A DNA stretch of 48,024 nt. Source: an uncultured Bacteroidaceae bacterium (GTDB taxonomy: Bacteria > Bacteroidota > Bacteroidia > Bacteroidales > P3). Location: assembly GCA_964513825.1 (NCBI GenBank), contig CAZEOJ010000002.1, positions 1-48,024 of the forward strand, read 5' to 3'. Below are positions 9,054-48,024 of this stretch, piece by piece. The position numbers were made by a program, and so were the translations under genes. Below the pieces are notes generated by a model. It worked only from the letters and a program-made list of their open reading frames with translations. It made no database searches and was not told the DNA's origin. How positions within the stretch are numbered: the first letter of the stretch is position 1; each line of letters begins with the position of its first letter.

Positions 9054-9054
9054 C

Positions 9055-15359: not shown

Positions 15360-15365
15360 TTCGCG

Positions 15366-16049: not shown

Positions 16050-16052
16050 GCT

Positions 16053-17619: not shown

Positions 17620-17681
17620 TGGCTTGTATGAGCTTGTGCTCAAATTATATTAAAAAGAAAAACAATAAAATAAGTGAGATT

Positions 17682-19746: not shown

Positions 19747-21420
19747 ATGAAAGGTTGCAGGCATATAGTATGGGTGTTGCTTGCCCTCGCTCCGTTTTTC
19801 GGGGCCAGGGCAAGTAATATCCAGATTGCCAATGTGAGTCTCAAGGACCGCGACACTATGGCCGGCACCGTATTCATTAAGTTCGACCTCAGTTGGGAAT
19901 TCTCGTGGAAAGACCGCACCCATGGCAATTGGGATGCGGCCTGGATTTTTGTCAAGGCCTACGAAGACGAGCTCAAGACCTGGAGCCATGTCAATCTTGT
20001 GGCACCCGAGGGGCGGCCCCGCATCAGCGGCGCGAACTGCTATATAGCGGCCCCCCACGAGATAGGTTCGGCCAACGAGCCTATCTGGACCGAGTTCGGC
20101 ACCAGCAACACCGATTTCGGCGAAAAGGTGACGGGCCTGTTTATCTATCGCAAGGATCCCGGCAACGGCCACAACACCATCGAGAATATCCGCCTCAAGT
20201 GGAACTATGCCGCCGATGGCTTCCTGTCGAGCGACAACCTGCAGGTGGCGGTGTTCGGTATAGAAATGGTGTATGTGCCCGAACATGTCTATATCCTGGG
20301 CGACGGCACTTCGACCAACTCCCTCTATGCCGACGGCAAGAACATCATCATCAAGACCGATATCGTGGGCGGCAGCAACGTCATCAAGGCCAGTATGGGG
20401 CATATAGAGACCGAAACGGGTTTTACCTATCAGGGCACGGCCATTCCCGATGTGTTCCCTATGGGGCATAAGGCTTTCTATATGATGAAATACGAGATAA
20501 GCCAACATGCCTATGCCGACTTTCTCAATACTCTTACGGCCGAACAGCAGGTAAAGCGTACCAGCGCCAGCCCTTATGCGGCCCAGGGCACCTTGGCCAT
20601 GATTCCCGCCAAATACAACAGCAATCCCACCCAATACCGCAACTTTATCCGCATCCGTGCCGCAGGTTTGCCTGCCACAGCCGAAAAGGCCTCGGTAGCG
20701 GCCCGCTACGGCAACAGTGTGAGCGGGAGCAACGGCTTGGATGCGTGGGATTTGGAAATGAACGGAGGCAATATAGCCTGCAACTTCCTGTCGTGGAACG
20801 ACGGGGCGGCCTATTTGGATTGGGCCTGCCTGCGGCCTTTCTCCGAATTAGAATACGAAAAGGCCTGCCGGGGCACCAAGTTCCTCAAAGAGGAGATGGC
20901 CTGGGGCGAGAAATACGGCACGGCCATCACGGCATCGGGGGCCACTTGGTTCACCAACGCCAACCAGCCCGACGAAAAGTCGGTGAACAAGGCGGCCAAC
21001 TACATCCCTACAGGCAAGGCGCCTTGGGTGATGCGCGTGGGCGGCTTCTCGGGCGATTCCACCTTGCGCACCGAGGCGGGCGCCACCTACTACGGCATTT
21101 TGAACATGAGCGACAACCTTTGGGAGCGTTGCATCAATGTGAGCACCGACGACGGGCGCAAGTTCATTCCCAACGAGGGCGACGGCAAGTTGGACGAGCT
21201 GGGCGAGGCGGAGGTCTTTCCCGATGCGTTCAGCGTGGATCCTTGTTGGCCCGATGCGTCGGGCAAGGGTACGGGCTTTAGGGGCGGAAAGGTTTCGGAC
21301 CGCACCTATGCCGAAAGTAAGGTCATCATAGCCAACGAGGGCGACAGAACGCCCTATACGGGTTTTAGGGGGGCGCGCTACGCACCGCCTGAGACCCGCT
21401 ACGACCTTAGTGAGTTTTAG
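19747..21420 (+). CDS. FGE-sulfatase (SUMF1) domain protein, GldJ/GldK/PorK-like, paralog 2
   Basis: 557 aa with a signal peptide. Blocks: FYMMKYEISQHAYADFLNTL, FLSWNDGAAYLDWACLRPFSELEYEKACRG, GATYYGILNMSDNLWERC. The same N-terminal module is present (NIQIANVSL...IKFDLSWEFSWK...WDAAWIFVKAY). Confidence 0.85.
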   Translation: MKGCRHIVWVLLALAPFFGARASNIQIANVSLKDRDTMAGTVFIKFDLSWEFSWKDRTHGNWDAAWIFVKAYEDELKTWSHVNLVAPEGRPRISGANCYIAAPHEIGSANEPIWTEFGTSNTDFGEKVTGLFIYRKDPGNGHNTIENIRLKWNYAADGFLSSDNLQVAVFGIEMVYVPEHVYILGDGTSTNSLYADGKNIIIKTDIVGGSNVIKASMGHIETETGFTYQGTAIPDVFPMGHKAFYMMKYEISQHAYADFLNTLTAEQQVKRTSASPYAAQGTLAMIPAKYNSNPTQYRNFIRIRAAGLPATAEKASVAARYGNSVSGSNGLDAWDLEMNGGNIACNFLSWNDGAAYLDWACLRPFSELEYEKACRGTKFLKEEMAWGEKYGTAITASGATWFTNANQPDEKSVNKAANYIPTGKAPWVMRVGGFSGDSTLRTEAGATYYGILNMSDNLWERCINVSTDDGRKFIPNEGDGKLDELGEAEVFPDAFSVDPCWPDASGKGTGFRGGKVSDRTYAESKVIIANEGDRTPYTGFRGARYAPPETRYDLSEF

Positions 21421-21439: not shown

Positions 21440-24400
21440 TTGAAACACTTCGACCGCATTCACATAAGGGGGATTCTGTTAGCCGTGGCGCTCTTTCTGG
21501 CTGTTTTGGCCGGAAGCGCGGCCGTGGTGCGCTATCGCTCTACCCTTTCTGCGCCTGCGGTCGAACCGGCGCCTGTTTCGGTATCTGTTCCTATGTCTTC
21601 GGTTGCGGCTCCTGTTTCCGCGCCCGAAATTCCCGTTGCGGCCATGCCTGCGGCGGCTTCGGCAGAACCGGCCGTTGCCGATGACGTAGAATTCGGGCCT
21701 TATGCGGGCGGTATGGCGAGCGGTGTGGAAACGGCGGTTTCCAAATTGTCCAAACCCAGCAAGACGTATGCGGGCGGTATGGCCGACGGTCATGCCAACA
21801 TGCAGATGGTGCGTCCGATTATGGCGCTCTATCATAGCGGTATAGGCGATGGGCACGCCACCGTTACCCTTACGGCCAGACCTTATCTCGGTTATTTAGG
21901 CGGTATAGGTGACGGTCATTCCACCGCCACGATGAAGCCTTCGGCCAATCTGGCCTATTTGGGCGGTTTCGGTGACGGACACACCACCGCCACACAACCC
22001 AATCCTGTGGCGATGGCCTATATGGGCGGCTTTGGCGACGGTAACACCACTGCCACACAACCCGAAGTTCTTGCCAGAGCCTATCTGGGTGGCTTCGGCG
22101 ACGGTCATACCCACGCACAGATGTTTACCGGCCCCGCCGTGGCCTATTTGGGCGGCTTCGGCGACGGCCATACCCACGCACAGATGAAGACAGGCCCTGC
22201 CGTGGCCTATTTGGGTGGTTTCGGCGACGGTCATATCTCTGTAGCCATGAAGACCGGTCCCGCCGTGGCCTATTTGGGCGGTTTCGGCGACGGTCATATC
22301 TCTACCGCCATGAAGGCCCGTCCCGCCGTATCGTATTTGGGCGGTTTCGGCGACGGCCATATCTCCATGGGCATGAAAGCCCTGCCGTCGGTGGCCTATC
22401 TGGGTGGTTTCGGCGACGGTTTCCACAATATCAACAATCCTCTACCCAAGCCTTGGCCTTATATGGGCGGCATAGCCGACGGTTTTATCACCACCTTGGG
22501 CAAAGGCTTGTTTGTGCCTATGTATGCGGGCGGCAAGTCGGACGGTTTTGCCAAACGCGCCGTGCCTTGCGACACCAATCAATATCTGATTTACGCGGTA
22601 GATTCGCTCTGTCCTAAAGATACCTTGTTCTTAGCCACCGACTCGGTGGAATATGCCAACTACTATTGGCGTGGCCCCGATGGCTGGACCTCGCGCGAGC
22701 AGAACCCCATCCGTCCCAACTTCACCACCAAGATGGCGGGTACCTATACGGTCACCATCGACCCGGGTTGCGCCTCGAGCGACGAATTGCCCATGGCCTC
22801 CAAGATCATCAAGGCCATCTATGCCGAACCGGTATATGCCGTCATAGACAGCATGGCGCCTAATATGGGCACGGAGGAACTTTGCTATGGCGACAGTTCG
22901 TTCTTTAGGCTCACCGGCTACGGTTTCGGTGATACGGCCCGTTTTGTATGGAAGATAAACGGTCTCCCCGTTTTGGAGAAGATCAACGATACCACGGCTT
23001 ATTTCGACAGTCTGGCCAACGGCTTCAAGTTGAGCGTGGAGGTATATTCGTCGCTCGGATGCGTCACCGACCGTCCTTACGAGACCAAGCCTATCACCAT
23101 CAAGGCCACCGAAAAGAAAATCGTGAACGTGACCATCGCCGCCGATATCGACCAAAGTCTTACGGATGTGACGGTGTGCGAGGGCTTGCCGCTTACGTTC
23201 GCTTCGGCCTACGTGAATGCGGGCGACAATCCGCGTTTTGTATGGTTGCACAACGAAGACACCGTATTTGACGGTGTTTCCAAGAACGTTATCCGGATAG
23301 ATACGCTCGCCGACGGCGACAGTGTGCGTTTGATGCTCCATTCGAGCATCCATTGTGTGGATTGCCGTCCCAAGGAATCGAACACGCTTCATATCCATGT
23401 CAAGAATCTGCCCGAAATGAAGGTTAGCCCCGAACAGGCCATCAACCTCAACGAGAACGTGGATATCTGGGCTACGGGCGGCAGCGAGTTCGCTCAATAT
23501 GCTTGGACGCCCTGCGCTTCGCTTACCGGCGGCATCTGCGATAAGGATACGGTCAACGCCGCCCCGCGCACCACCACTACCTATCAGGTAACGCTTACCG
23601 AACCGTGGGGTTGCGTGGTGAAGGATACCGTGAGGGTGGAGGTCTACACCGATACGCGTATCATCGAACACGCCAAGAGCGTTACGGTGTGCGACAGCAC
23701 GGAGGCTACCTTCAAGGTGCGTGCTTCGGGTGTGGATGCCCACTACAAATGGCAGGTGGACGAGGGCGACGGCTGGGTGGACATCGATTCTCTGCCCAAG
23801 CCTAATCCGTATTGGGTGGAACAACAGGGTTCCACCAACTGCTTCCTGCATATAGGCAAGGATACGGCGCACAAGACCACGGCTCTGTCTATGGCCATGG
23901 ACGGCTTCAAATACCGTTGCGTGGTGGATGGTCGCAAGGCCACCACGGGTATCCGCGACACGCTCTACTCCAACGATCCTTTGATTATCGGCGACGCTAT
24001 ACTGAGTATCAATCCTATCCAGTATAGTTATCCTTCCATTGTCCGCGCTCCCAACGATACGCTCTGCGAGGGCGAGAACGCCACCTTCAAGCTCAGCTTC
24101 GTAAATACTCCCAGCACCAAGTGCCGCATCGACTGGAAGGTGGATACCTCCATTCTGGCGAGCGGTCAGGATCTCATCTTCACCACGCCGGTCAATAGGG
24201 GTACCCAGATTCAGGCTCTGGTGTACACGGCCTACAGGTGTCCGGCTTTCGATCCCGAGGTTTCGAATGTCTGGGTGGCCGCGGCGCACAAGGCGCCTGT
24301 GGTGAATGCGGGCAAGGATACCACCATTCAATACAATACCACCGGTCTGCTGCACGGCAAGCTTGTGGCGGTGAACCAGGATACCTTGGCCAGCGACACC

Positions 24401-42400: not shown

Positions 42401-45400
42401 GTGACGGGCATCACCGACTACACCTTGGCATGGTTCAGAATCCGCAACAACGTCGAGATAGCCCTCGGCAACGGCTCGGCCACGCTGACCCTCACCGACG
42501 CCGTCGACGAAGACCTCTACTATGCGGTGGTTACCCCGCTGGGCAACTGCATGGATGCCGCCAGCCGTCACAGCGACACCGTAGAGGCCACCATCTATCC
42601 CACGCCCGTGGCCAACCCCAACAAGGCCCGCTACAATCCCGCCCGCGCGTGCAGCAACGACACCGCCTGGATAGAATGCTACCAGACCGTACCCCGCAAG
42701 GGACGCTTCGCGCAGACCCTCGAATACAGCATAGACGGCACCAGCTGGCGCACCGACGGCATCTTCAAGCCGCTGCCCGACCAGAGCGAGTACAGCATCC
42801 ATATCCGCAACCAATACGGCTGCAAGGCCAAGAACAGCCCCATCGTGGTGCCCAAGACCACCATGAAGTCGAACGCATGGCTCCGCGCCGGCCTCAACGA
42901 CACCTGCTACCAGGGCAACAGCGTCACCGTGAAGGGCGACACCGTCATCGACGCCACCCCGCTGTGGAGCACCTCGGGCACGGGCACGTTCAACAACACG
43001 GGCATCCTGCATCCCACCTACACGCCCAGCGCGGCCGACTTCGCCAAGGGCAAGGTGACGCTCTACCTCAAGACCAACAGCAGCAACGAATGTGATTTGG
43101 CCGACAGCATCGAAATCCTCCTGTTGGGTTGCGAGATCTATACCTTTGAGGTGAAAGGCAACACCGACGTATGCTTCGGCGGCACCGGCACCTACCGTGC
43201 CCGCTTTGCGGTCGACGCCGCCGGCGCCTCCGCCATCAGACCCGCCGACCATACCATCATATGGAGCACCCGCGACGCTTCGGGCAACCTGTCCGTGCTC
43301 AAGACCGATAACGACACCGCCTCCACCTGGAGCCTCACGGTGGCCGACAGCGGCTGGTATTATGTGACGGGCACCACGGCTACGGGCTGCATGTTCAAGG
43401 ATTCGCTGCACATCACCCTGGCCACCGAACCCGACATCGCCATCCTCCACGGTACGCCCTGTCCCACCACGCCCATCACGTTCCGTCTGGATACGGCCCT
43501 GCTCTTCGCCAAGAGCGGCTATGTCAACTACGCCTACAACTGGAGTGCCGTGGCCTATAAGGGCGGCGTTTCCACCACCCTCGGCACCGGCACGGCCGAC
43601 AGCCTCGCCCTGTCCCCGCTGCCCGCCGAAACCGACAGCCTCGTGGTGAGCGTAAGCATCACCACCGCCGAAGGCTGCACCTACAGCCGCACCAAGACCC
43701 TTTCCTACGAGCCGTGGGAAGACCTCTCGGGCTATGTGACCAACGACACCGCGGTTTGTCAGATCAACTCCTATGTTCTGCTGGCCGATATCGAAGCTCT
43801 TGATATCCTCAAGCACTACACCATGCAGTGGAGCAACGCCCGCGGCACGGCCAACCCCTTGGCGTTCCTGGCCAACGATCCCATCCTGGTGGACAGCACC
43901 AACAGCTACTACCTCACCATCACCCGCCCGAGCGACGGATGCCACTACTACGACACCATCCACGTGCGTGTAGACTCCATGCCCAGGATCTATATCGCCG
44001 ACACCATCTTCAAGTGCGCGCAGACGGGTCGTTTCTCGGTTTCGCCCGACAGTGTCGAGTATAACAAAGACGCCTACTATTGGTATCTCGATACTTACGG
44101 ACCCTGCAAGCCCAGCATAGCGAATGTCGACAAATACAGCGTCAACTTTACGCCTTGCGCCTCCATGTACAATGCCGACGGCTGGGCCACCCTGCGCCTG
44201 CGCACCGAAGGTATCAACGCCTGCGCCGGCAAGATTGTCTACGACACCGTCACCCTTGTGTTCCGCGGTCTGATGAAGACGGATGTGAAGAACGTGAGCG
44301 TATGTCTCGACGACAGCGTCGATGCCACCGTAGTGGTGACCGACCTCCATGGTGCCAATGTGGACAGCTTCGCCTATATCCTTATGCGTCCCGACAGCGT
44401 GCTGCGCAATGCCGCCGGCGACACCCTCCTCTACCGTCGTCCCGACACCCTCGGCACCTTTGTCTACAAAGACACGCTCAGGGTATGGAACGCCGACCGT
44501 TGCTACATCGAAAAACCGTATACCGTAACCTTTACGGCCACCGCCCGTATCCTGGAAGACACCATCGTCATCTGCACCGGCGACACGGCCACCCTTACCG
44601 TGGCCAACGCCACCCGTACCCCCTCGTGGCAGGAGTTGGGCAAGAGCACCACGCTGCACTCGGGCAACAACTATAAGGTGACGCCCACCCAGACCACCAC
44701 CTACGTGGCCTCGCGTTTCGCCAGCTCGGGCGGCTGCCAGAAGTATACCACCGACACGGTTACCGTAGTGGTGAAGGAAGGCTTCTACCTGCGCGCCGTA
44801 CCCGACAGCAACTTCTGCAACCCCGGCGAGATGCTCTGGGCCGTAGACAGCGTGGATGCCGAAGACGTAACCTACACCTGGGTCGACAGCGCCCTGCAGG
44901 TACTCTACGGCGTGGGTGACCCGAGAGCCATTGTCTCCACCGACAGTGCGTTTACCGACAGCGTCACCGACACCGACAAGACCTACTACCTGCACGCCGT
45001 GGCCGGCAACGGATGCGAGAAGAACATCACCGTGCGCGCCACCTACCGCCACATCCACTTTGCCCTGAACTACTACGACACCGTGGTTTACGAAGGCAGC
45101 AATCCTAAGGTGGCCGTAATCGGCTCCATGCCCGGCGGCTACTACCCGTGGTTCGACGCGCAGGACAGCATCTACCTCACCTTGTCCGACAGCCTCTACC
45201 GTCCCAAACTTACCCGCGACACCAACTACTTCTACTTTGTGGGTGAAAGCAAGGAAGAAGGCTGTGCGCTCAAGCTCAGGGTCATCACCATACCCATCCC
45301 CATGTTCGACACGGCGGTATGCGACTACGAGTGCGCCGAAATCCGACTCAGGGGCAGCGAAGGCGCCGACAGCATCACCTACAGGTATGCCGACACGCTG

Positions 45401-48024
45401 ATGTTCGTGACCGAACACAGCACGCCGGTACGCCAGGAATACTCCTACAGCGACACCATGGTAAGGACCACGCAGCACCTGCTCGACACGGTTCTCTACC
45501 ATGCGATATACGAGCCCTATCCCGGCAAGCCCAAGAACGATACGGTGAAGGTGAACCCGTTCTGCGACAGTATCTACGCCGATCCTTTCATCGAGCTGGT
45601 ATACGCCGGTCTCAACGCCCAGGGTGTGGATGTCTACAAGGAAGTGGTGTCCTACAAGCATACCGAACTCAAGTGCCTCGAGGCCGAGCCCGGCATGAAG
45701 ATTATCTGCGATACGTTGTATTCGATAGACTACAATAAGGACAAGAAGACGGGTGTAGAGACAAAAACCCGTTTGGACGAAGGTACTTTGGTCAACTGCC
45801 GTCAGGTGGACAGTGTCTGCAGAGTTACCTACATAAGCGCGTTGAGTGAAGACAAGAAGTTCGACACAGCCAAGGCCGTATTGGATTGCACGCCGCCCGC
45901 ACCTGGTGTGAAGACCATCTGCGATACGATTTACGATTTGGAAAAAGTGAAGAAAGGTTCGGTTTATGTCTACAACCGCACGGGTGCATTCAAGACCGAG
46001 AACTGCAAGACGGTTGCCGAAGACTGCGAGGTAACGTATGCGACAACCACCGACAAGACCAATTTGATAGAGACGGTAACTTACAGTACTGCCTGCACCG
46101 AAGGTGGCGATAAACCTAAAGAGAAGACCATCTGCGACACGATTTATGTATTGGAGAAGGTGAAGAAAGGTTCGGTTTATGTCTACAATCGTACAGGCGT
46201 ATTTACGACCGAAAATTGCAAGAAGGTAGCCGAAAATTGTGAGGTAACATATACAACGACCACCGACAAGACGGCATTGAAAGAAACTGTAGCCTACAGC
46301 ATTAACTGCAAGTCTGAAGGTGGTGATACACCTAAGCCGCCCACTCCGACGGTGAATACGAAACAAATCTGTGACACGGTATATACGTTGGAGAAGGTGA
46401 AGAAAGGGTTGAGTTACGTATACAACCGCACGGGAGCCTTTACGGTATCGAACTGCATCAAGGTAGCCGAGGACTGTGAGGTAACGTATACGACAACCAC
46501 GGACAAGACAGCCTTGGTGGAGACGGTGACCTACAGCACCACCTGCAAGCCTGTGGAAGAGGGTGGCGATACACCGACACCGCCTACGCCTACGGTGAAG
46601 ACCAAACAGATCTGCGATACGGTATATACGTTGGAGAAGGTGAAGAAAGGGTTGAGTTACGTATACAACCGCACGGGAGCCTTTACGGTATCGAACTGCA
46701 TCAAGGTAGCCGAGGACTGTGAGGTAACGTATACGACAACCACGGACAAGACAGCCTTGGTGGAGACGGTGACCTACAGCACCACCTGCAAGCCTGTGGA
46801 AGAGGGTGGCGATACACCGACACCGCCTACGCCTACGGTGAAGACCAAACAGATCTGCGATACGGTATATACGTTGGAGAAGGTGAAGAAAGGGTTGAGT
46901 TACGTATACAACCGCACGGGAGCCTTTACGGTATCGAACTGCATCAAGGTAGCCGAGGACTGTGAGGTAACGTATACGACGACCACGGACAAGACGGCCT
47001 TGAAAGAGACGGTGGCTGCGGTACACAGTTGCGAGCCCGTGAAAGAGGGCGGAGAAACCCCAAAACCCGACGACCCCAAACCCAATCCCACGCCTACGGT
47101 AAAGACCAAACAAATCTGTGATACGGTATATACGTTGGAGAAGGTGAAGAAAGGGTTGAGTTACGTATACAACCGCACGGGAGCCTTTACGGTATCGAAC
47201 TGCATCAAGGTAGCCGAGGACTGTGAGGTAACGTATACGACGACCACGGACAAGACGGCCTTGAAAGAGACGGTGGCTGCGGTACACAGTTGCGAGCCCG
47301 TGAAAGAGGGCGGAGAAACCCCAAAACCCGACGACCCCAAACCCAATCCCACGCCTACGGTAAAGACCAAACAAGTCTGTGATACGGTATATGCGTTGGA
47401 GAAGGTGAAGAAAGGATTGAGTTACGTATATAACCGCACGGGCGAGTTCACGGTAGAGAACTGTGTGAATGTGGCCGAAGACTGCGAGGTGACGTATACG
47501 ACGACCACGGACAAGACGGCCCTGAAAGAGACGGTGGCTGCGGTACACAGTTGCGAGGAGGTCAAGACTGGCGACACTCCAGCACCCAAGCCTGACCCGA
47601 CGCCCGACCCCAAACCGGACCCGGAGCCCGAACCTACGCCTACGGTAAAGACCAAACAGGTCTGTGATACGGTATATGCGTTGGAGAAGGTGAAGAAAGG
47701 ATTGAGTTACGTATATAACCGCACGGGCGAGTTCACGGTAGAGAACTGTGTGAATGTGGCCGAAGACTGCGAGGTGACATATACGACGACTACGGACAAG
47801 ACGGCCTTGAAAGAGATGGTGGCTGCGGTACACAGTTGCGAGGAGGTCAAGACAGGCGATACGCCTGCCCCCAAGCCCGACCCAACGCCCGACCCCAAAC
47901 CGGACCCGGAGCCTGACCCCGAACCGACACCTACAGTAAAGACCAAACAGGTCTGTGATACGGTATATACGTTGGAGAAGGTGAAGAAAGGGTTGAGTTA
48001 CGTATACAACCGCACGGGCGAGTT
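21440..48024 (+). CDS. Giant cell-surface repeat protein (SprB/Ig-like-repeat adhesin type), at least 8,861 codons, 3' end beyond the window
   Basis: The + frame with codon starts equal to 2 mod 3 has a TAA at 21425..21427 and then no stop to base 48024. The track lists many + ORFs in the other two frames but none in this one. Spot translations across the whole span give coherent Cys-framed modules, for example VCRGDSATIGATGAETYMWEP, GGNGVYTYKWEYSLDG and WQISADGGTTWAEV. SprB-type repeats are ATCGGEEGSITLSGNKGTAPYTYTFNG (26045..) and SSCGESDGIIGIRAKGDTTLTYSI (26534..). A TTG start at 21440 gives a signal-anchor (LKHFDRIHIRGILLAVALFLAVLAGSAAVV). The first in-frame ATG is at 21593. The start codon is uncertain; the reading frame is not. 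Confidence 0.9.
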   Translation, partial: MKHFDRIHIRGILLAVALFLAVLAGSAAVVRYRSTLSAPAVEPAPVSVSVPMSSVAAPVSAPEIPVAAMPAAASAEPAVADDVEFGPYAGGMASGVETAVSKLSKPSKTYAGGMADGHANMQMVRPIMALYHSGIGDGHATVTLTARPYLGYLGGIGDGHSTATMKPSANLAYLGGFGDGHTTATQPNPVAMAYMGGFGDGNTTATQPEVLARAYLGGFGDGHTHAQMFTGPAVAYLGGFGDGHTHAQMKTGPAVAYLGGFGDGHISVAMKTGPAVAYLGGFGDGHISTAMKARPAVSYLGGFGDGHISMGMKALPSVAYLGGFGDGFHNINNPLPKPWPYMGGIADGFITTLGKGLFVPMYAGGKSDGFAKRAVPCDTNQYLIYAVDSLCPKDTLFLATDSVEYANYYWRGPDGWTSREQNPIRPNFTTKMAGTYTVTIDPGCASSDELPMASKIIKAIYAEPVYAVIDSMAPNMGTEELCYGDSSFFRLTGYGFGDTARFVWKINGLPVLEKINDTTAYFDSLANGFKLSVEVYSSLGCVTDRPYETKPITIKATEKKIVNVTIAADIDQSLTDVTVCEGLPLTFASAYVNAGDNPRFVWLHNEDTVFDGVSKNVIRIDTLADGDSVRLMLHSSIHCVDCRPKESNTLHIHVKNLPEMKVSPEQAINLNENVDIWATGGSEFAQYAWTPCASLTGGICDKDTVNAAPRTTTTYQVTLTEPWGCVVKDTVRVEVYTDTRIIEHAKSVTVCDSTEATFKVRASGVDAHYKWQVDEGDGWVDIDSLPKPNPYWVEQQGSTNCFLHIGKDTAHKTTALSMAMDGFKYRCVVDGRKATTGIRDTLYSNDPLIIGDAILSINPIQYSYPSIVRAPNDTLCEGENATFKLSFVNTPSTKCRIDWKVDTSILASGQDLIFTTPVNRGTQIQALVYTAYRCPAFDPEVSNVWVAAAHKAPVVNAGKDTTIQYNTTGLLHGKLVAVNQDTLASDTMRYSWAPLSGIKGVSDSLEAKTGIIKANVEYVLTGTNIHGCIHRDTVLVTCKGGPLGMDGKIGAGTVVKQYIEICENDSLCISGKPVGGSEMYHHVWTEKPLDSTPANPYFATADTSVLCMKNSPVGTTVYTLTVDDGVDTVYKEITVKVIGLVLSSATLTGDTVLCTPSEYFNIGVKPDETVEGVANYTWYVEDTAAKTFKAVRNFEGKAVYAGRGNTVYNGARLFCAVTVANKCPIVNPIHTDTLVLWPDGTPKFTTITRDTSICPADTVALFATGTRVDSLFWTPQTFVVAGGDAKSETDTVLVAPTSNTTYTVTLVSIEGCTASRNVRVNIHPTTSTKATASDVYACLNGSTRITTTTRGYDLTYIWEKRVGGTGEWKLASEKAPAGKYEGLNSANLTVNYVEKIEEGDQYRLIAVSSRCMPSDTTAPVTLHVLDSVIFSMTLVDTPRCVNDPARIRLYTNVSASALKAFSVELNGGTTGKRTFQTRDTLFTIPNITPGEKVQAFMTPTGLIASCVEVLPIPSEIIDLGVQPAPTLSYTYNNPATCGGEEGSITLSGNKGTAPYTYTFNGVDKGTQTVYSGLSAGMYSAQVADIYSCKSQPVYISLRDPNGPVAPAVTNAGMYCVQDTLPEYLLLDPNTKKAEIRWFTDIRCTNQVHTGDSMPFPSMPGVYTYYLYQIKNNCKSATTRVWVFVGAAPQITSVEAIVPSSCGESDGIIGIRAKGDTTLTYSIEDPANYGNSADFVDLPNGTYILSVLSAAGCVTRDTLEFYADNTPEGPKMISRDTIYCYDAPRKPLEAKPAGGGFIVWYRDYTLTTEMGQGDTCNISSLGVGKNTISATERGGECESKPVRVNVTVLPKINTGVPAINEGCLNTDITVRARKDATVAYTWLKGGVEIGKGDTLVVGVTEETEVYTVHAVKNTNGVVCATDYDFKVRQSTFVPVIDTSVCQGDSIEITVPGGIKYLWPDSSTASTYTVRAGNPNSVQAVLVKVELEGGCTRNYRFNITTDADPSSYVSIDKDFTFYCAGDAKALKAVLSNTSVPVSLQWFKDGEMLAGDTTATLNIQNDTVGLSTYVVRAEARNRCPLPRVTYDTLVLRTYALPKVYAGMDTLVDYNESITLGTDATVSDGVLPYAYTWVKKGETTPINTSSTVLTTASPRLVNTTVFELKVVDSVGCGAKDEVKVTVVGGPFSLDSIRPFDITLDEYAEIICVGDSVSFEALPEGGSGKYEYVWEMPVGTVVSNKDQIRFLPASTTQCKVTVINLTKGTPMASDTLVRYPRVVVHQRAVAGTVTTPDTTMCPDSSFRLTLRSYSGDRIQWQRSVDGTTWSTLVGSTASITISGAAKTNYYRALVGNGVCPDVASPDLKVLVYTSPLDTIAGPADTLCPETEGVALTGNLVTEGGNGVYTYKWEYSLDGEKYLTCPNEADGVNYTWTNRIDTTRYFRRMVYSDGCPFISNVHKVDVYDEIGTSITIKKDFDLYCTADPQQLKVSLSNPDVPVTLQWFRNGVAIDSATEAVLTIHDTVPGTYTYRVEAVAFENHCPPTRYSSDSVTLTAYPSLVVYAGVDDSVQYGERVILGMEAWVKSGTEPYAYSWVKSGTNNALNADKTQLIMQTSRLTYTTVFDLKVKDARGCTAQDDVKVKVLGGPFRLDSIRPFDITLNDYRDTICVGDSVSFTAQPEGGSGVYRYIWEIEGEVVRDKPEIRLLPLQSTFCKVTVINVTEGVAVASDTLVRYPHVIVHQRAVPGYITTPDTTMCPDTSFKLKLHEYSGNRIQWQRSVNGVVWSALNGTADSISVPGTKNTYLYRALVGSGVCPDVATPQLKVSVYTPPVNTVSGPTETLCPEVDSVMLEGNTVTSGGNGTYTYSWEYSTNGGSYKVCPDEPAGEDYLWRNCIDSTRRFRRVVYSDGCPYYSNVYTVKVYTGTRIGRILGENYVCFDSIFSLSVTPTDMDSYQWQRAVHPDSAFENVGDGTFGYTSDPAKRTYFYRVIGQKYGCEPDTTDLFEISPTTPREVTVHISVDTMATCVDNFLTFTVDSTLNAGNAPTFYWYVNGKVLKTPVMKGSETLAYTENGGKVLRISTLRPGDSVWAGLASSIGCVTTRLALSDTIKPTVYLPEAHFVSPLADSVFCRRDTVVLHAEGGVKYSWFYRVDTDSVTRVLDTTNTNKVKVSPTEPTVYAFYGIDRHNCFFSDSLKLSPEPTVTASPDTLICHGSTIALQISVQPNRGNTYQWTETAVHSGTPATLNAREATTATVRVKPEDSLTYYIYSVYTLRGCTYTDTIRVETETTTMPSFVIDYNGYKSGDTVNIVECSKQEHFFVPDSIMSGGDKPTFKWYFNNYVAGKDSLFSDSYAGMLDRSTVYAEMTSSKKCVSERTVKSNSLYVRYTKMPDADVNINSNKGLQVCPDEEVVIFQAHTPSYDSGTYVWFVKRVDSGANARFENVHTGDSLVGNFAAGDQVYCVYFANDTCIKGSPKQSNTLTFQTYPLHRPKVTITQIINEYPAWGDTICEYAPVTFVAAIEDAGKDYAFTWMLDGTIIGTPNTLRIAYDELQANSDTAVNMRNLVARLETKHQCASPGNVVEANDTIYVRPRKHFSAYIEQEGTLDCQSITEELVRFTQVISPHYVYRDGYLATVCNGSYTSDWTNSAAVSQQVISGGNGVVKATAAHASYYQMFGLTSKESMVNYGDIDYAIYLNAGTVQVYEKGTNKGSFGRYVAGDVFEVEVLDNNVRYIKNGTVFYTSTVPATAFVYRGGYALRTHWCPNTPESSHHQDPKLLDIRIVYHKSGVVFNSRIVAPPVNKPTYTWYVNGKPFEFGNGEASLVEHNYAFEDGDVVKLFAKTNDYCVDVPSAMSQEIMVRVPVAKDFLRTVADTVFVCRGDSATIGATGAETYMWEPVRYFSQAQSRDSSIHYLPLETASYRVYGTVNTNCTDFKRVDVIVNELPKPDLGKDINVCYPDTVYLSINKGAVPDTTTDRIYHTAWTFIPDKGEAYNPVSTHENAIDYALLSTGRMVAAMSNVSSGCTVTDTMVINVLDTLGIVVTHTARVLPKYSCPGARDTLSFSYMQNENHPVTLAWYKNGRLLRSSNNANDTVLITNDFVDLDTIYAVVSLPFECGLERAKDTALFPLRRHVKPVASIVVSEDTLCAGDTLGVAVKVVDNPDDTVVYSYRWYINNKAVALTDTPSIRLEDYVSDGTFYYNVFCYVRRALECGFDSVKSADTTILIMPIDTIAVRIDPEVVTGCVYPDGRVFMHADLVVEGRHPVFDKALPAITWYLDDTVVSGLNGTAFDHLVASMDTSAAHTLAVKAVSSYKCVAVNTVFDTADIDFFAVYADAGPDTSIESNKNVTLFHDSVRGDRIQWTTGGDGYFTNATVLHPTYILGTQDRKSDSIILYLHVSSRFGCDTRDSMVIRLTRCAAYALAKRSSDQTICHDDTLFIENKVVAISTAIGSDIPHILYTLTAQPSGRYPLDTLAVVEDSTNAFRWKGVVDTSRKYLLHAEILNTFCHYYDSTRVTVLPLNTISVKLNQPDSTKCTVGALKQAEWTSLNSMHWSVGDGVARHIHCNNYPYAPTSAYGLANSTMRYVATGKELAVLVGFNYENDRNTALDYAFYLTNGSFTIYHEGNPVTYSAVGSYKVGDVFTIVRDHKQVIFYVDQNGTHREVYRMDEPAYGHGLKVNYAAASFRSGDVINPIMYGSTTAAKVFAEVQYGPVSGNVSYVWKVGDKVISTASTFDYEKVNLQSGDTVTVRAMGVNRCDTLYAYDTLIVDGPASPNAPFFLALTRDSAAQCEGEGFTLTAHAYNLENVADGSLTASDLRYNWYLNGTLVKGNTAANTYLYNNLKNGDYAHVEAVLPATACALYREGNPTLSHRLYFSLKENRKLDFDMYLARAKDTAVCPNTAVTFNTKVVNGGGYTIDWYVNGRLAAAGNSYTVTPDSSFDVYAVVHPNSTGYCLDSTGNVSKTIKVRLLEVPRVRAWADTEVVAGSKVMLHGELLRETDKPTSVQWTSTQGTVPGRNSLNPTITANTTTFYFLTAYSAYGCASNTDTVEVDVYECPTLRNYSVPDMVCDGDSALLRVDMAGYKPSSNRYLWQISADGGTTWAEVSGSRYTVTNDRTGSTLKVKPANFDLDASNNVRFRAVISADTSRSNLCNTVYTPKLSLNVDKAHLVPPTIDLLGESDFCTTDCHVYPVYEAKLSEGYEVAWKLNGSGVLEWDGNDHKRSYTVHNGDKVIGVLYGNSVCVNRMNISDTITVRFHRPVKVKAWSDTMIRKNDAAMLHASATEGTGRITYKWTDASFVVDDTKAETQTKSISATRIFTVTATDSLGCIGTGKVLVKVNDTCITNVKLQGPESVCVNETATFQGLITGDRAFGTPQSEWTVNPPLLSNDGSIIVPNPNSARMDIADAQPGTYTVKFTVTDTLEQTKKYCNPDGIVMSDSLIFTINAPDTLSLRIDTLQTRSYCENDKAVIRAQARVNGNLPAAGELLVRWYRIRNNYTTYRGSGDSIIENNLFDGDRFYAVASFADNNCVISNSVYSDTATFRVGEKPEPLQAQQVVAHNHISCVPDDSTYIVINPSASQLAYNLLYTIDSGRTWHTDSVFGNLAEGHYYVGVKADDGCSTDKMVSVYIQNQPDYEFDTLSFRIDTIYACNGKIDLFPSQRADSASGLGYIEWFEDSARTKLLKRSPEYAKSHTYVPERRFLDSVGVYEFWAAESAGLCKGTPSKFVYIVSSCDAELTPKRDTICSDDTVLYSLVIDSISLRNAGGWLFQYSADGKFAPATTENISTGDTLAMTFRDNRAGSYRVAYITPNQDTLYHEASTLWVGTYADPAKYISLAYPKTKAIDMCPGETATFTFYDKDRMFEVFWPGDTAGSTYHSTYEVTLDSTAAVYVRLRSLLGGCESDTTVEVIVRQRTTIALSSYDTTVCYEPDTYLYFPQVLDTGNVFYITYEWAKVGGTDMGSGPFLVQNTRFEVEPDTNYYVATASTGYAECPSRPDTFRVVAHRPTWTVTPAQVTVCAGNLFPFHAGTPFDSIRFGEGMWQPRGNDSFTLGPIYKDSTVSVTILRKTCESVGTFNVKIVARDTLGVELTENADACVALAPVTGTNIDLGLHAQLQYRVQGTENSAFAGLVYKGVAASAQTMPYSFYMVTDGEGETHLYVYVNGVQANMTSFGTVEAGDRLAIGREEGKMNFYRNGALLYSTAETSRAADYMNAQVDVDGNTALTDITLLNLPGSKVSASVNTVYNNRTYAWYINGTEVGTAAALDAAAHPVMNGDTVVLRVRSASPCDTLEKADTLVISKQNAYKPLTVAIDTPDALCPGAAHYTFTATVTAPAGVAAADLRYNWYRNGNKVVSGASYNTYDANNLQVGDVVFAEAYVANNLCVLNQSSYPAVSNRVVPQFEQPAAKTARILPEPGLTLCRFDEATFTVVMTGNAYLPARVDWYLNGTLAQSSAALTYRTNALADGDKVHAVVQLSADELCDGLQLVYTDTVSLTVNPVPVVEAGPDQSAFFGDTVQLNGSVLSGLSDPMTYHWTPQTQPADALSTQCIVEHAGYRYLYATNSYGCTGYDSLFIDMDECNYIEAQSPVNGNEVCEGDSVRFTVTIGGMRAGNPQRIWQISTDNGSTWSNVPAADYKVDNAGLLVRRAEASMNNALYRMVFVPDATLDMDCDTLYSLPYRLKVNAATRTLAASLQEPGVLCDDVATVTFTLNGSFQTGDLYAWYLNGIPVGQGSASLTLDRNRIADGYKLKAVVEAAAQACADKQVVADSLTIKINPALTLDAWADTIINRNTQAALHADAQGGTAPYAYSWKQASYTQDATAANTYTTNLTATRLFEVEATDQAGCKATARVRVSVVDTCIDGIEIAGDNQTKTVFDLCQDSSITFDALVSGGMPGGYTLAWTVSPALPADDLVTSANGARLWMKPSVAGTYTLTATVTDTTALGAALCTAAQRTHTATVTLNVSAPATFAVSVAEADALCEAEVEEGKLTLQATVTGITDYTLAWFRIRNNVEIALGNGSATLTLTDAVDEDLYYAVVTPLGNCMDAASRHSDTVEATIYPTPVANPNKARYNPARACSNDTAWIECYQTVPRKGRFAQTLEYSIDGTSWRTDGIFKPLPDQSEYSIHIRNQYGCKAKNSPIVVPKTTMKSNAWLRAGLNDTCYQGNSVTVKGDTVIDATPLWSTSGTGTFNNTGILHPTYTPSAADFAKGKVTLYLKTNSSNECDLADSIEILLLGCEIYTFEVKGNTDVCFGGTGTYRARFAVDAAGASAIRPADHTIIWSTRDASGNLSVLKTDNDTASTWSLTVADSGWYYVTGTTATGCMFKDSLHITLATEPDIAILHGTPCPTTPITFRLDTALLFAKSGYVNYAYNWSAVAYKGGVSTTLGTGTADSLALSPLPAETDSLVVSVSITTAEGCTYSRTKTLSYEPWEDLSGYVTNDTAVCQINSYVLLADIEALDILKHYTMQWSNARGTANPLAFLANDPILVDSTNSYYLTITRPSDGCHYYDTIHVRVDSMPRIYIADTIFKCAQTGRFSVSPDSVEYNKDAYYWYLDTYGPCKPSIANVDKYSVNFTPCASMYNADGWATLRLRTEGINACAGKIVYDTVTLVFRGLMKTDVKNVSVCLDDSVDATVVVTDLHGANVDSFAYILMRPDSVLRNAAGDTLLYRRPDTLGTFVYKDTLRVWNADRCYIEKPYTVTFTATARILEDTIVICTGDTATLTVANATRTPSWQELGKSTTLHSGNNYKVTPTQTTTYVASRFASSGGCQKYTTDTVTVVVKEGFYLRAVPDSNFCNPGEMLWAVDSVDAEDVTYTWVDSALQVLYGVGDPRAIVSTDSAFTDSVTDTDKTYYLHAVAGNGCEKNITVRATYRHIHFALNYYDTVVYEGSNPKVAVIGSMPGGYYPWFDAQDSIYLTLSDSLYRPKLTRDTNYFYFVGESKEEGCALKLRVITIPIPMFDTAVCDYECAEIRLRGSEGADSITYRYADTLMFVTEHSTPVRQEYSYSDTMVRTTQHLLDTVLYHAIYEPYPGKPKNDTVKVNPFCDSIYADPFIELVYAGLNAQGVDVYKEVVSYKHTELKCLEAEPGMKIICDTLYSIDYNKDKKTGVETKTRLDEGTLVNCRQVDSVCRVTYISALSEDKKFDTAKAVLDCTPPAPGVKTICDTIYDLEKVKKGSVYVYNRTGAFKTENCKTVAEDCEVTYATTTDKTNLIETVTYSTACTEGGDKPKEKTICDTIYVLEKVKKGSVYVYNRTGVFTTENCKKVAENCEVTYTTTTDKTALKETVAYSINCKSEGGDTPKPPTPTVNTKQICDTVYTLEKVKKGLSYVYNRTGAFTVSNCIKVAEDCEVTYTTTTDKTALVETVTYSTTCKPVEEGGDTPTPPTPTVKTKQICDTVYTLEKVKKGLSYVYNRTGAFTVSNCIKVAEDCEVTYTTTTDKTALVETVTYSTTCKPVEEGGDTPTPPTPTVKTKQICDTVYTLEKVKKGLSYVYNRTGAFTVSNCIKVAEDCEVTYTTTTDKTALKETVAAVHSCEPVKEGGETPKPDDPKPNPTPTVKTKQICDTVYTLEKVKKGLSYVYNRTGAFTVSNCIKVAEDCEVTYTTTTDKTALKETVAAVHSCEPVKEGGETPKPDDPKPNPTPTVKTKQVCDTVYALEKVKKGLSYVYNRTGEFTVENCVNVAEDCEVTYTTTTDKTALKETVAAVHSCEEVKTGDTPAPKPDPTPDPKPDPEPEPTPTVKTKQVCDTVYALEKVKKGLSYVYNRTGEFTVENCVNVAEDCEVTYTTTTDKTALKEMVAAVHSCEEVKTGDTPAPKPDPTPDPKPDPEPDPEPTPTVKTKQVCDTVYTLEKVKKGLSYVYNRTGE
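21695..22560 (+). repeat. About 14 tandem copies of a 21-aa (63-nt) Y-L-G-G-F-G-D-G-H repeat in the N-terminal region of the giant protein
   Basis: Direct reading gives core copies such as PAVAYLGGFGDGHTHAQMKTG and PAVAYLGGFGDGHISTAMKAR, with GCCTATTTGGG recurring at 63-nt spacing (e.g. 22142 and 22205). Flanking copies are degenerate (YAGGMADGH, YHSGIGDGH, YMGGIADGF, YAGGKSDGF). Confidence 0.9.
27440..30180 (+). repeat. Tandem duplication of a roughly 1.37-kb (about 457-aa) multi-domain unit inside the giant gene
   Basis: Unit A (about 27440..28810) and unit B (about 28811..30180) are collinear. Examples: KDFTFYCAGDAKALKAVLSNTSVPVSLQWFKDG vs KDFDLYCTADPQQLKVSLSNPDVPVTLQWFRNG; GGPFSLDSIRPFDITLDEY vs GGPFRLDSIRPFDITLNDY; RIQWQRSVDGTTWS vs RIQWQRSVNGVVWS; RYFRRMVYSDGCPF vs RRFRRVVYSDGCPY. 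Boundaries are approximate. Confidence 0.8.
35050..44200 (+). repeat. Two diverged copies of a roughly 4.56-kb (about 1,520-aa) super-repeat inside the giant gene
   Basis: Collinear landmarks have a constant offset. GACCTGCGCTACAACTGGTA occurs at 35868 and 40433 (offset 4565). TGGCAGATAAGC (WQIS.DGG/NGS.W) occurs at 36685 and 41263 (offset 4578). AWSDTMIRKNDAAMLHA pairs with AWADTIINRNTQAALHA, VRWYRIRNN with LAWFRIRNN, and YTIDSGRTWHTDSVF with YSIDGTSWRTDGIF. Outer boundaries are approximate. Confidence 0.75.
45695..48024 (+). repeat. Array of at least 10 tandem four-cysteine modules with Pro/Thr/Asp-rich linkers in the most distal part of the giant gene visible here; it continues beyond the window
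   Basis: The consensus unit is K-[TQ]-I-C-D-T-[VI]-Y-x-L-E-K-V-K-K-G-x-x-Y-V-Y-N-R-T-G-x-F-x-x-x-N-C-x-x-V-A-E-[DN]-C-E-V-T-Y-x-T-T-T-D-K-T-x-L-x-E-x-V-x-x-x-x-x-C plus a linker. First-Cys codons are at 45707, 45920, 46133, 46370, 46613, 46856, 47117, 47378, 47663 and 47954. Spacings are 213, 213, 237, 243, 243, 261, 261, 285 and 291 nt. Adjacent pairs 4/5, 6/7 and 8/9 are nearly identical at the DNA level. Confidence 0.9.

Follow-up and report, generated by a model that had tools for sequence, protein, structure and literature searches.

Introduction

Among the described proteins close to the one reported here is SprB of Flavobacterium johnsoniae, a gliding adhesin and T9SS type B cargo. Both are giant, repeat-built, β-rich Bacteroidota proteins with an N-terminal signal peptide, and the present protein also shows weak SprB-repeat similarity together with Ig_7 domains typical of CHU_C proteins. 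Giants that carry CHU_C (PF13585, ‘Gliding motility-associated C-terminal domain’), for example those of Lentimicrobium and Flavobacteriales MAGs, share Ig_7 and PKD-like modules with it, and the Big_9/cadherin-like modules repeated in them resemble two of its segments, aa 7141-7278 and aa 4295-4441, at 35-50% identity. The giant Ig-repeat adhesins of the LapA, SiiE and MpIBP type are T1SS substrates that have C-terminal RTX repeats and no Sec signal peptide; their likeness to the present protein lies in a chain of Ig-like extenders with specialized end modules, and in Gly/Asp repeats that recall a Ca-binding β-roll or β-solenoid.

The family described below nevertheless differs from each of these systems. 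Compared with SprB it has no type B sorting domain and no sprF/porP-like neighbour, its SprB-repeat matches are sub-threshold, and it possesses a 21-aa Gly/Asp N-terminal array, four-Cys C-terminal units and two FGE-fold partners. The CHU_C giants cover just 3-10% of the query and are unlike it in architecture, both termini and gene neighbourhood, while their enrichment in the O-glycosylation sequon is 1.27-fold against 4.7-fold here. In contrast to the LapA, SiiE and MpIBP type, the Gly/Asp array repeats every 21 aa and stands at the N-terminus behind a signal peptide; no match to RTX or HemolysinCabind was obtained in the giant protein with Pfam or NCBIfam, and no homology to adhesins of this type was detected.

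The window, by which we mean the whole stretch of 48,024 nucleotides analysed, comes from an uncultured Bacteroidaceae bacterium. Our reading, to which we assign a probability of about 0.8, is that its 3′ part is a genuine forward-strand gene for a giant, Sec-exported, repeat-built surface fibre or adhesin of gut Bacteroidales, surface display being deduced from the sequence.

A giant open frame under purifying selection

The feature on which the analysis centres is the following.

21440..48024, + strand: giant gene, 8,861 codons from TTG 21440, stop-free, 3′-truncated by the end of the window

The + frame with codon starts equal to 2 mod 3 contains zero stops from the TAA at 21425-27 to base 48024 (26,600 nt), and the other two + frames contain 339 and 493. 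TTG 21440 is the earliest start codon of the frame, and a TTG start is also called in the orthologues L006 and L010. An earlier note on this DNA had reported both the open frame and its omission from the track of open reading frames; translation bears out at least 8,861 codons, and the gene is absent from the track because no stop lies inside the window. Codon usage in the gene is marked by a GC3 of 75% and an A3 of 7%. Alignment with the orthologue L003 (78.8% identical) is colinear across 4,447 aa with 17 gaps, and gives a sense dN/dS of 0.25, with 0.144, 0.115 and 0.287 substitutions per site at codon positions 1, 2 and 3. The region from 21440 to the window end is thus confirmed as a genuine + strand gene; it is under purifying selection, and its product is a giant modular protein of which at least the first 8,861 residues are encoded here.

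Colinear orthologues were found at 33-88% identity, and those listed here have zero + stops and very few antisense stops.

L004: 87% identity
L006: 44-48% identity
L008 and L013: 36% identity
L018: 33-37% identity

Within Bacteroidales MAGs the family reaches 8,463 and 9,654 aa in gene calls labelled complete and at least 13,742 aa in a member that is still open. A search of a large protein database returned no match longer than ~2,460 aa, so that the family giants are invisible to such searches, and no relative emerged when metagenome data were scanned with the C-terminal repeats. One relative, P0003, bears the name ‘SprB repeat-containing protein’ at NCBI.

The gene, with at least 8,861 codons and open at the window edge, had been proposed to rank among the largest in bacteria. 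The rank was overstated: catalogued proteins with a length of 5,000 aa or above number over 41,000 (PMC11573180), predicted bacterial proteins reach 85,804 aa (bioRxiv 10.1101/2023.11.21.568195) and a relative is itself still open at 13,742 aa.

Antisense frames and assembly

Three open frames lie opposite the giant gene.

26669..47833, - strand: shadow ORF, 7,054 aa, not a gene; codon-aligned antisense, bounded by TTA 26669
22631..26506, - strand: shadow ORF, 1,291 aa, not a gene; bounded by TTA 22631 and TTA 26669
21896..22426, - strand: third, smaller shadow ORF; bounded by TTA 21896 and CTA 22442

Their great length, and the fact that gene callers have annotated equivalents in three public MAGs (L009, L012, L018), would favour the view that the 7,054-aa and 1,291-aa frames are real genes, or that both strands code. 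This view is refuted computationally and we give it virtually no credence. The two huge frames had been interpreted in the earlier note as shadows, correctly: they are codon-aligned with the + frame and their borders coincide with the only TTA and CTA codons of the giant gene (TTA at 21479, 21896, 22631 and 26669; CTA at 22442), TCA occurring zero times. They exist because the sense frame nearly never uses these three codons, of which 5 are observed against 43-58 expected from the usage of neighbouring genes. In the comparison with L003 the antisense frame has a dN/dS of 1.22 and an amino-acid identity of 64%, against 79% in sense; the 7,054-aa translation contains 0% Trp with 15% Gly, 10% Arg and 13% Val; antisense stops differ among orthologues in place and in number (1 to 8 per 10 kb); and protein homology lies entirely on the + strand. 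Selection for an open antisense frame need not be invoked either, since in addition to that dN/dS most A-ending codons are used at 0.3-0.6 times the neighbours' rate; for TTA, CTA and TCA, rare anyway, the ratio is 0-0.16. A different doubt is whether collapsed or concatenated repeats have made the frame artificially long. Tandem repeats that are nearly identical do close the window: in its last 1.9 kb stretches of up to 362 bp recur exactly, neighbouring terminal units are pairwise identical, and almost all related contigs break or have an N gap inside the terminal array. Outside 46.1-48.0 kb, however, and hence over 21440 to 45000, the longest exact repeat within the gene is just 32 bp, module paralogues are mostly less than 50% identical, and the colinear orthologues come from seven independent assemblies. 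An artefact on the scale of the gene is accordingly very improbable, and doubt is confined to the unit count in the last ~1.9 kb: owing to the exact repeats there and to a 3′ end outside the window, the copy number of the terminal array is unreliable and the total length uncertain.

Architecture of the predicted protein

The segments of the giant gene can be set out as follows.

21440..21526, + strand: probable Sec signal peptide (MKHFDRIHIRGILLAVALFLAVLAGSAA, with cleavage before V), read from the sequence
21527..21700, + strand: Pro/Ala/Ser/Val-rich low-complexity linker, aa 30-87, from the translation
21701..22567, + strand: N-terminal 21-aa repeat array, ~13 copies, core Y-L-G-G-x-x-D-G-[HF], from the translation and repeat counts
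22568..45544, + strand: central region, aa 377-8035, divergent Cys-framed β modules of ~75-95 aa, from Pfam matches and self-derived HMMs
27437..30139, + strand: internal segmental duplication, aa 2000-2450 and aa 2455-2900, 60-77% identical
42860..43273, + strand: module aa 7141-7278, with homologues among the repeated modules of many CHU_C (T9SS type B) proteins of Bacteroidota
34322..34762, + strand: paralogue of that module, aa 4295-4441
45689..48022, + strand: C-terminal array, at least 10 four-Cys units, the window stopping inside a unit

By inspection, the N-terminus combines a basic n-region, a 14-residue h-region and an S-A-A/V site, and equivalent n, h and c regions recur in L004, L006, L008, L010 and L013, where small residues likewise occupy positions -1 and -3. 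The hydrophobic N-terminus noticed earlier is therefore present, though it looks like a cleavable signal peptide and not like the anchor for which it had been taken. A lipoprotein reading was set aside: the Cys in the h-region of some orthologues is missing from this gene and from L004. Beyond the linker, the proposed His/Gly/Asp repeats were recovered as an array of strict 21-aa period, in which 12 copies are clear and a further 1-2 degenerate, the last copy reading ...GGKSDGFAKRAVPCD, and the period, with a copy number of 8-12, is conserved across all orthologues. The array has no match in Pfam or NCBIfam, and its AF2 model (pLDDT 47) is unusable. An interpretation as a 12-stranded, inverse-autotransporter-like outer-membrane β-barrel was likewise discarded, given that the number of copies ranges between 8 and 13 and that the repeats lack amphipathic character.

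The modules that make up the central ~7,700 aa appear to be Ig/PKD-like where they can be recognized. Pfam matches to Ig_7, Ig_3, Ig_2, K319L-like PKD, PKD_3 and PKD_6 are scattered along the region; in the whole-protein search Ig_7 scores 68.3 and 53.2 bits (cut-off 27.3), Ig_3 49.4 bits (cut-off 30) and Ig_2 34.7 bits (cut-off 27), and K319L-like PKD reaches 40.5 bits (cut-off 27) within a 900-aa piece. The region contains 215 Cys residues. Whole-protein self-BLAST and a single-seed iterative HMM started from the Ig_7 match yielded nothing because the modules are too divergent; module families were instead built from tiled BLAST and multi-seed profiles, and the iterative profiles delineate ~56 modules in seven self-derived HMM families that span half of the region. 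Of the more than 80 modules with signature motifs that had been suggested, ~56 are thus recognized and a number above 80 is plausible from length only, while the motifs themselves are real but rare (W[YF]xNG 10 times and GGxxxYxYxW five times, against ~0 in shuffles). The segmental duplication is single copy in the L006 orthologue. With several domains above curated thresholds and an export signal recognized by inspection, the protein falls in the generic class of Ig-like/PKD-like repeat surface proteins, in line with the proposal that it is a repeat-built surface protein of the Bacteroidota.

Each terminal unit consists of a ~65-aa four-Cys all-β domain with an invariant C-D-T...C...C...C pattern, followed by a Pro/Thr/Asp/Glu linker, and these linkers grow longer along the array. 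The AF2 model of the unit predicts four β strands with a pLDDT of 95; a Foldseek search with it against the PDB found no significant neighbour (best E 1.3), and a search with the unit gave just nine matches at E≤1e-10 among 1.84 billion representatives. A phmmer match to P0252 had provided a lead to HYR_4C (PF23237), which was abandoned when hhalign of the unit alignment A2 against the HYR_4C units of P0252 returned a probability of 1.2%; Pfam HYR_4C has no match in the giant protein or in the relatives' C-terminal regions. Weak Pfam matches in the terminal array (CVNH, DTC, RES, Trypan_PARP and others) were dismissed as repeat-inflated or derived from the Pro-rich linkers. In four relatives the natural C-terminus comes directly after a four-Cys unit, with ...CEAIKED (L015), ...CKAIKED (L016), ...VTCN (L017) and ...SDCE (L018) immediately before the stop, and seven of eight short fragments from other samples stop at the same point of the unit. 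Judged from these relatives, the present gene is probably only slightly longer than the window, extending one or a few units beyond it to a total of ~8,900-9,500 aa.

The protein is also rich in the Bacteroidota O-glycosylation sequon D-[ST]-[AILVMT] (PMC8550257), with 210 occurrences against 45.6±6.1 expected (4.7-fold), control tripeptides being found at ~1-fold. Across orthologues 57-60% of the sequons are retained at 41-49% overall identity, compared with 7-27% for the controls, and the enrichment is 2.9- to 5.9-fold in family members versus 1.27-fold in other Bacteroidota repeat proteins. Part of it could be structural, as 27 of the 210 sites occur in the G-D-[ST]-V context typical of Ig strand B.

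Gene neighbourhood

Upstream of the giant gene lie the following features.

19747..21420, + strand: FGE-fold protein B, 557 aa, signal peptide; Pfam FGE-sulfatase E 3.6e-8
17619..19721, + strand: FGE-fold protein A, ~680 aa from an internal Met, lipobox LLGAC/G
1..17507, strand not given: upstream envelope-gene cluster, which accompanies the cassette in several relatives

The stop of the gene for FGE-fold protein B is 19 nt ahead of the giant gene start. Two FGE-fold genes stand immediately upstream in every relative with a visible giant-gene start, B occupying the same position in L001, L002, L004, L006, L008, L010 and L012/L013, and A likewise. The cluster beyond them comprises six PD40 (TolB-like) proteins, most with lipoboxes, three DUF6057 membrane proteins, small lipoprotein genes, TPR genes and three interspersed toxin-antitoxin pairs; upstream gene order is identical in L004, and PD40 and DUF6057 genes also occur in L006, L008 and L012. 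On the other side of the giant gene, relatives carry a downstream partner of ~950 aa that is conserved between L015 and L018 at 40% identity, and the 952-aa protein of L018 matches Por_Secre_tail with 21.7 bits (E 2.6e-4), below the cut-off of 27.

The FGE-fold pair, one member a lipoprotein and the other secreted, recalls GldJ and GldK/PorK in its FGE-sulfatase-type domain and in its location beside the gene for a giant surface protein. An assignment of the pair to GldJ, GldK or PorK found no support: the NCBIfam GldJ and GldK models have no match to it at E≤0.01, and a PDB search with a family profile of the FGE-fold partner retrieved only FGE, EgtB and CalU17, over a core of just 45 residues, and no PorK/GldK chain. 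A distant FGE-fold homologue is located among Por_Secre_tail genes in a Flavobacteriales MAG.

Relation to SprB and the T9SS

The description of the protein as SprB/CHU-type stands in part, for its Ig_7 domains (‘CHU_C associated’) lie above threshold and its modules are homologous to those of CHU_C proteins. Taken literally it would make the protein a gliding or adhesion protein exported as T9SS type B cargo, with the sorting domain just past the window and a PorP/SprF-like partner holding it on the surface. The Bacteroidota host, the giant size and repetitive β-rich build, the weak SprB-repeat matches, the NCBI name of P0003 and the occurrence of the aa 7141-7278 module in many CHU_C proteins are all consistent with such an assignment, and in the genome of one relative the gene for a CHU_C protein is found 5 kb from the giant-gene locus, from which it follows that a T9SS is present in the lineage. 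The SprB repeat (PF13573), however, attains best scores of 20.0 and 22.5 bits against a gathering cut-off of 28, and does so in one or two stretches only. Searches at the C-termini of the four relatives (L015-L018), this gene's own end being outside the window, revealed neither a type B domain (PF13585 CHU_C/TIGR04131 Bac_Flav_CTERM) nor the type A domain Por_Secre_tail (PF18962/TIGR04183) at E≤1 for Pfam and E≤10 for NCBIfam, and seven of the eight fragments from other samples share the same end point. No PorP/SprF-like gene occurs among the 14 upstream genes or among the downstream genes of L015, L016 and L018, and the NCBIfam search of the giant protein was empty. An SprB-type cargo is in consequence improbable.

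The protein might still be T9SS cargo with a non-canonical signal, either because the terminal four-Cys unit represents a new class of sorting domain or because the protein travels or is anchored piggy-back on the downstream partner. In some cargo proven to use the T9SS, F. johnsoniae ChiA among them, the C-terminal signal fits neither type, which counts in favour of this explanation, as do T9SS cargo encoded close by in the lineage, the conserved downstream partner with its Por_Secre_tail similarity and the Flavobacteriales setting of the FGE-fold homologue. Against it, the Por_Secre_tail match is under the cut-off, and a unit repeated from four to ten or more times is unlike a terminal signal. 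We regard this route as conceivable, if on balance doubtful. Because T9SS cargo exist in the lineage yet no sorting domain can be recognized, the giant protein offers a test case for non-canonical export and anchoring in Bacteroidota.

Proposed working and significance

Under our preferred reading of a Sec-exported surface fibre or adhesin, the giant protein would leave the cytoplasm by Sec via its cleavable N-terminal signal peptide, and many of the 210 sequons would be O-glycosylated after export. It would then be displayed as a very long beads-on-a-string fibre or adhesin whose extender is made up of ~80 Ig/PKD-like β modules, while the 21-aa Gly/Asp array serves at the N-terminus as a specialized end module, possibly a β-solenoid, and the disulfide-stapled four-Cys domains with their Pro/Thr linkers form a flexible stalk at the C-terminus. 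Candidates for dedicated export or anchoring are the FGE-fold lipoprotein, the FGE-fold secreted protein and the downstream ~950-aa protein with its weak Por_Secre_tail match. We further propose, tentatively and as something possible rather than probable, that these proteins constitute an undescribed family of giant fibres of gut Bacteroidales (8,400 to more than 13,700 aa) that reach and hold the surface by some means other than canonical T9SS type A or type B export, with a dedicated FGE-fold/downstream cassette, mucin-like dense O-glycosylation (~210 conserved sequons) and two new terminal modules.

If this is true, few bacterial proteins would carry O-glycans as densely as the fibre, which would in effect be a mucin-like molecule of bacterial origin. 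Conserved, 9,000-14,000 residues long, probably bearing many glycans and equipped with dedicated partner genes, a fibre of this kind likely forms a major structure on the surface of gut Bacteroidales that belong to an abundant group, and would bear on adhesion, aggregation, recognition by phages and the immune system, and the cost-benefit of giant genes. For annotation, the genes of the family are systematically broken at the terminal array in short-read MAGs, and at least three public assemblies list them as strings of antisense ‘hypothetical proteins’.

Coding strand and integrity of the giant gene

The + strand frame with codon starts equal to 2 mod 3 contains no stop from the TAA at 21425-27 to base 48024 (26,600 nt); across the window the two remaining + frames hold 339 and 493. 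From its earliest start codon, TTG 21440, the open frame runs for 8,861 codons. Translation bears out the giant + strand gene of at least 8,861 codons proposed in an earlier note, as well as the reason offered for its omission from the ORF track: it has no stop inside the window, and the track shows minus-strand ORFs instead.

26669..47833, - strand, ORF of 7,054 aa
22631..26506, - strand, ORF of 1,291 aa

That these two ORFs are shadows is supported by composition, by their borders and by dN/dS, all of which put coding on the + strand. The + frame has a GC3 of 75%, third-position A of just 7% and an ordinary protein composition; the minus-strand translation lacks Trp and contains 15% Gly, 10% Arg and 13% Val. 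Since the codons of the minus ORFs are in register with those of the + frame, an antisense stop needs a sense TTA, CTA or TCA; the gene has five of these (TTA at 21479, 21896, 22631 and 26669; CTA at 22442) versus 43-58 expected from its neighbours' usage, and the five positions coincide exactly with minus-ORF borders. A-ending codons mostly occur at 0.3-0.6 times the neighbours' rate and TTA/CTA/TCA, already rare, at 0-0.16 times, a depletion that likely reflects a stronger bias against codons already rare, though this is not a full explanation. Codon by codon the ratios are 0.16 for TTA, 0.10 for CTA and 0 for TCA, GTA being conversely enriched 1.6-fold.

Among the loci and contigs of relatives from MAGs and metagenome assemblies (L001-L018), the orthologue in L003 (JAAVBQ010000035.1, an 80-kb MAG contig) is 78.8% identical and colinear across 4,447 residues with 17 gaps; substitutions at codon positions 1, 2 and 3 are 0.144, 0.115 and 0.287, and the + frame has a dN/dS of 0.25, the antisense frame one of 1.22. 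With composition, ORF borders and orthologue comparison in agreement, the coding strand is settled as +, and the gene is real, conserved, under purifying selection and encodes a giant modular protein. All orthologues whose DNA was read have no + stops and 1-8 antisense stops per 10 kb, and the shadow explanation is valid for the whole family. Strings of minus-strand ORFs have nevertheless been called over the giant gene in three public assemblies, giving antisense ‘genes’ of up to 1,841 aa that are codon-aligned shadows as in the window; the + frame is stop-free in the DNA read from L009 and L018. We count this systematic mis-annotation in public MAGs as new.

Minus-strand calls over the giant gene in public assemblies
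L009 (GCA_910586395.1), 11553-21683, - strand
L012, 12539-21602, - strand
L018 (GCA_948621625.1), 1-9273, - strand

Mis-assembly of repeats, named in the earlier note as a possible undoing of the gene, is unlikely across 21440-45000, where the longest exact DNA repeat is just 32 bp and paralogous modules are mostly <50% identical. An assembly artefact is conceivable only in the last ~1.9 kb, which carries exact repeats up to 362 bp with adjacent units pairwise identical; because of these the terminal-unit count and total length are uncertain, but the gene is real. The window's end falls inside this terminal array, within which nearly all related contigs break or carry an N gap. Two old internal segmental duplications are present, aa 2000-2450 vs aa 2455-2900 (60-77% identity; window 27437-30139; 455 aa) and aa 4700-5500 vs aa 6200-7000 (35-45% identity). 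The L006 orthologue (44-48% identical) has a single copy of the first segment, so module number changes through block duplication.

Architecture of the giant protein

aa 1-29, + strand, basic n-region, 14-residue hydrophobic core, putative S-A-A|V cleavage site
aa 30-87, + strand, linker rich in Pro/Ala/Ser/Val
aa 88-376, + strand, ~13 repeats of strict 21-aa period, core Y-L-G-G-x-x-D-G
aa 377-8035, + strand, Cys-framed β modules
aa 8084-8861, + strand, a ~65-aa domain in 10 or more copies, invariant C-D-T...C...C...C (four-Cys unit)

The hydrophobic N-terminus had been taken for an anchor; by inspection it reads instead as a cleavable signal peptide, whose n-region, core and cleavage-site equivalents are kept in six orthologues, the TTG start also being called in two of them. 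The array that follows is present as described, although His is not general to it, Phe standing in its place in distant family members. Relatives have 8-12 copies, and in all of them the final repeat reads ...GGxSDGFAKRxxPCD. No match to the array was obtained in Pfam or NCBIfam, and its AF2 model is unreliable (pLDDT 47), yet shows regular short strands per repeat.

Pfam matches to Ig_7 (‘CHU_C associated’), Ig_3, Ig_2, K319L-like PKD, PKD_3 and PKD_6 are scattered over the entire central region, while the SprB repeat scores 20-22.5 bits, under the cut-off of 28. More than 80 modules bearing the signatures W-[YF]-x-N-G and GG-x-x-x-Y-x-Y-x-W had been described earlier; the motifs occur 10 and 5 times, and self-derived profiles recognise ~56 modules in seven families, covering half of the region. 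The W-[YF]-x-N-G module type accounts for 20 copies, overlapping Pfam Ig_7/PKD_3.

The four-Cys units are separated by Pro/Thr/Asp/Glu linkers that grow longer along the array. AF2 predicts one long β hairpin and one short (pLDDT 95), for which Foldseek against the PDB found no neighbour (best E 1.3). HYR_4C was considered as a relative and rejected by hhalign. Just nine among 1.84 billion representative proteins match the unit at E<=1e-10, mostly fragments of the giant-protein family.

C-terminus and possible downstream partner

Among eight short fragments found in other samples, seven stop a few residues past the fourth Cys of a unit, and DNA from four contigs reads through a last unit into a stop, followed by non-coding DNA and then downstream genes.

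C-termini of relatives (stop after the last unit)
L015, ...CEAIKED*
L016, ...CKAIKED*
L017, ...VTCN*
L018, ...SDCE*

The L018 end sits mid-contig (186 kb), and upstream of its stop 3,299 codons run without interruption, aligning colinearly to aa 5323-8348 in the window's protein. The search for T9SS sorting domains suggested earlier, run on these four C-termini, returned neither type A nor type B (Pfam E<=1, NCBIfam E<=10). By comparison with these relatives, the window's gene probably stops one or a few units past the window, at ~8,900-9,500 aa. In-frame stops also occur within a terminal four-Cys unit in L015 (~100-110, in place of the fourth Cys) and L017 (frame 3, second unit), which may stem from sequencing error within repeats or be real truncating or phase-variable mutations.

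The gene directly 3' of the giant gene is kept in L015 (531-2099) and L018 (10838-13696), at 40% identity over 520 aa, and may encode a partner. The L018 copy has CarboxypepD_reg/SdrD_B-like matches and a sub-threshold C-terminal match to Por_Secre_tail (21.7 bits). A CHU_C protein of 3,171 aa lies 5 kb from the L018 giant locus, and the lineage therefore possesses T9SS cargo.

Family and upstream partners

In a word-indexed database of 5.8 billion proteins the longest match was ~2,460 aa, so giant relatives are invisible in such searches; the giant protein and its 79-88% identical orthologues were not among the matches, and giant proteins thus seem either missing from that database or hidden in it. 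Relatives were found instead through a conserved upstream neighbour (2,857 homologues) and the contigs encoding it.

Giant genes found through the upstream neighbour (neighbour identity; giant call)
L004, 92%; 7,874 aa, off contig end, same gene order as the window
L006, 61%; 8,463 aa, called complete
L010, 58%; 9,654 aa, called complete
L008, 49%; 8,281 aa, off contig end
L013, 48%; at least 13,742 aa, still open

Two FGE-sulfatase-domain genes lie immediately upstream of the giant gene in these five loci as well as in L001 and L002, both MAG fragments; genes for PD40 lipoproteins and DUF6057 membrane proteins generally lie close to the cassette. The window's pair, FGE-A (17619..19721 +) with a lipobox and FGE-B (19747..21420 +) with a signal peptide, share a conserved N-terminal domain. 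Identification of either as GldJ, GldK or PorK is not supported by NCBIfam, and as the family profile matches true FGE across only 45 residues, no enzymatic role can be inferred. From the names of relatives the family belongs to Bacteroidales MAGs, and several of these, going by record names alone, come from rodent-gut projects. A distant FGE-fold homologue (34% identity) lies amid six Por_Secre_tail (T9SS type A) genes in a Flavobacteriales MAG (L014, GCA_020635855.1), which hints at a wider tie of the FGE-fold family to T9SS cargo loci.

O-glycosylation sequons

The Bacteroidota O-glycosylation motif (D)(S/T)(A/I/L/V/M/T) (PMC8550257) occurs 210 times in the giant protein vs 45.6±6.1 in shuffles, a 4.7-fold enrichment, with control tripeptides (E, N, Q, K or G first) at 0.7-1.1 times expectation. 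The sequons, recorded over window 21440-48022 (+) and in L003, L004, L006, L008, L010 and L013, span the whole protein, including the invariant C-D-T-[VIL] of each terminal unit. Orthologues at 41-49% overall identity retain 57-60% of them vs 7-27% of control tripeptides.

Sequon enrichment in other proteins
Family fragments, 2.9-5.9x
Neighbouring PD40 lipoproteins, about 3-5x
Other Bacteroidota repeat proteins, mostly CHU_C-bearing, 1.27x
FGE-fold family, 0.97x

The enrichment may be partly structural, 27 of the 210 falling in G-D-[ST]-V contexts; the overall pattern still fits heavy O-glycosylation of an exported fibre.

Proposed role and comparison with known systems

The giant protein combines an export signal with Ig/PKD-like modules, and its gene lies in a conserved envelope-gene cassette. 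We propose that it would be exported by Sec, O-glycosylated in the periplasm and displayed as a long beads-on-a-string fibre or adhesin, in which the Ig-like modules would act as extender, the 21-aa array as a specialised end module and the disulfide-stapled four-Cys domains with their Pro/Thr linkers as a flexible stalk. Crossing of, or attachment to, the outer membrane may depend on the FGE-fold pair, on the putative downstream partner, whose tail resembles a sorting domain, or on a T9SS signal of non-canonical type.

The nearest known kind is the giant Bacteroidota repeat adhesins (SprB, CHU_C proteins). The SprB/CHU-type label given earlier holds at the level of modules only, the hallmarks of SprB and of type B cargo having been looked for in the family and not found. 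The ranking of the gene among the largest in bacteria is overstated: one catalogue lists more than 41,000 proteins of >=5,000 aa (PMC11573180), and bacterial proteins as long as 85,804 aa have been predicted (bioRxiv 10.1101/2023.11.21.568195), so size by itself is unremarkable. As a class, giant surface proteins were already known; new are this family, the conserved partners and both unclassified terminal modules that go with it, the absent sorting domain and the extreme sequon density.

Neighbouring envelope genes

Window 1-17507 encodes six paralogous PD40 (TolB-like β-propeller) proteins, most of which carry a lipobox, as well as three membrane proteins of the DUF6057 family, partly as adjoining PD40-DUF6057 pairs; both kinds of gene also occur near the cassette in L004, L006, L008 and L012. 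Three small toxin-antitoxin-like pairs lie amid these envelope genes:

2760-3357, - strand, YoeB and a weak Phd/YefM-like match
3300-3998, + strand, unassigned 120-aa ORF and an HTH_3 protein
5125-5829, - strand, PIN_3 toxin and RelB antitoxin
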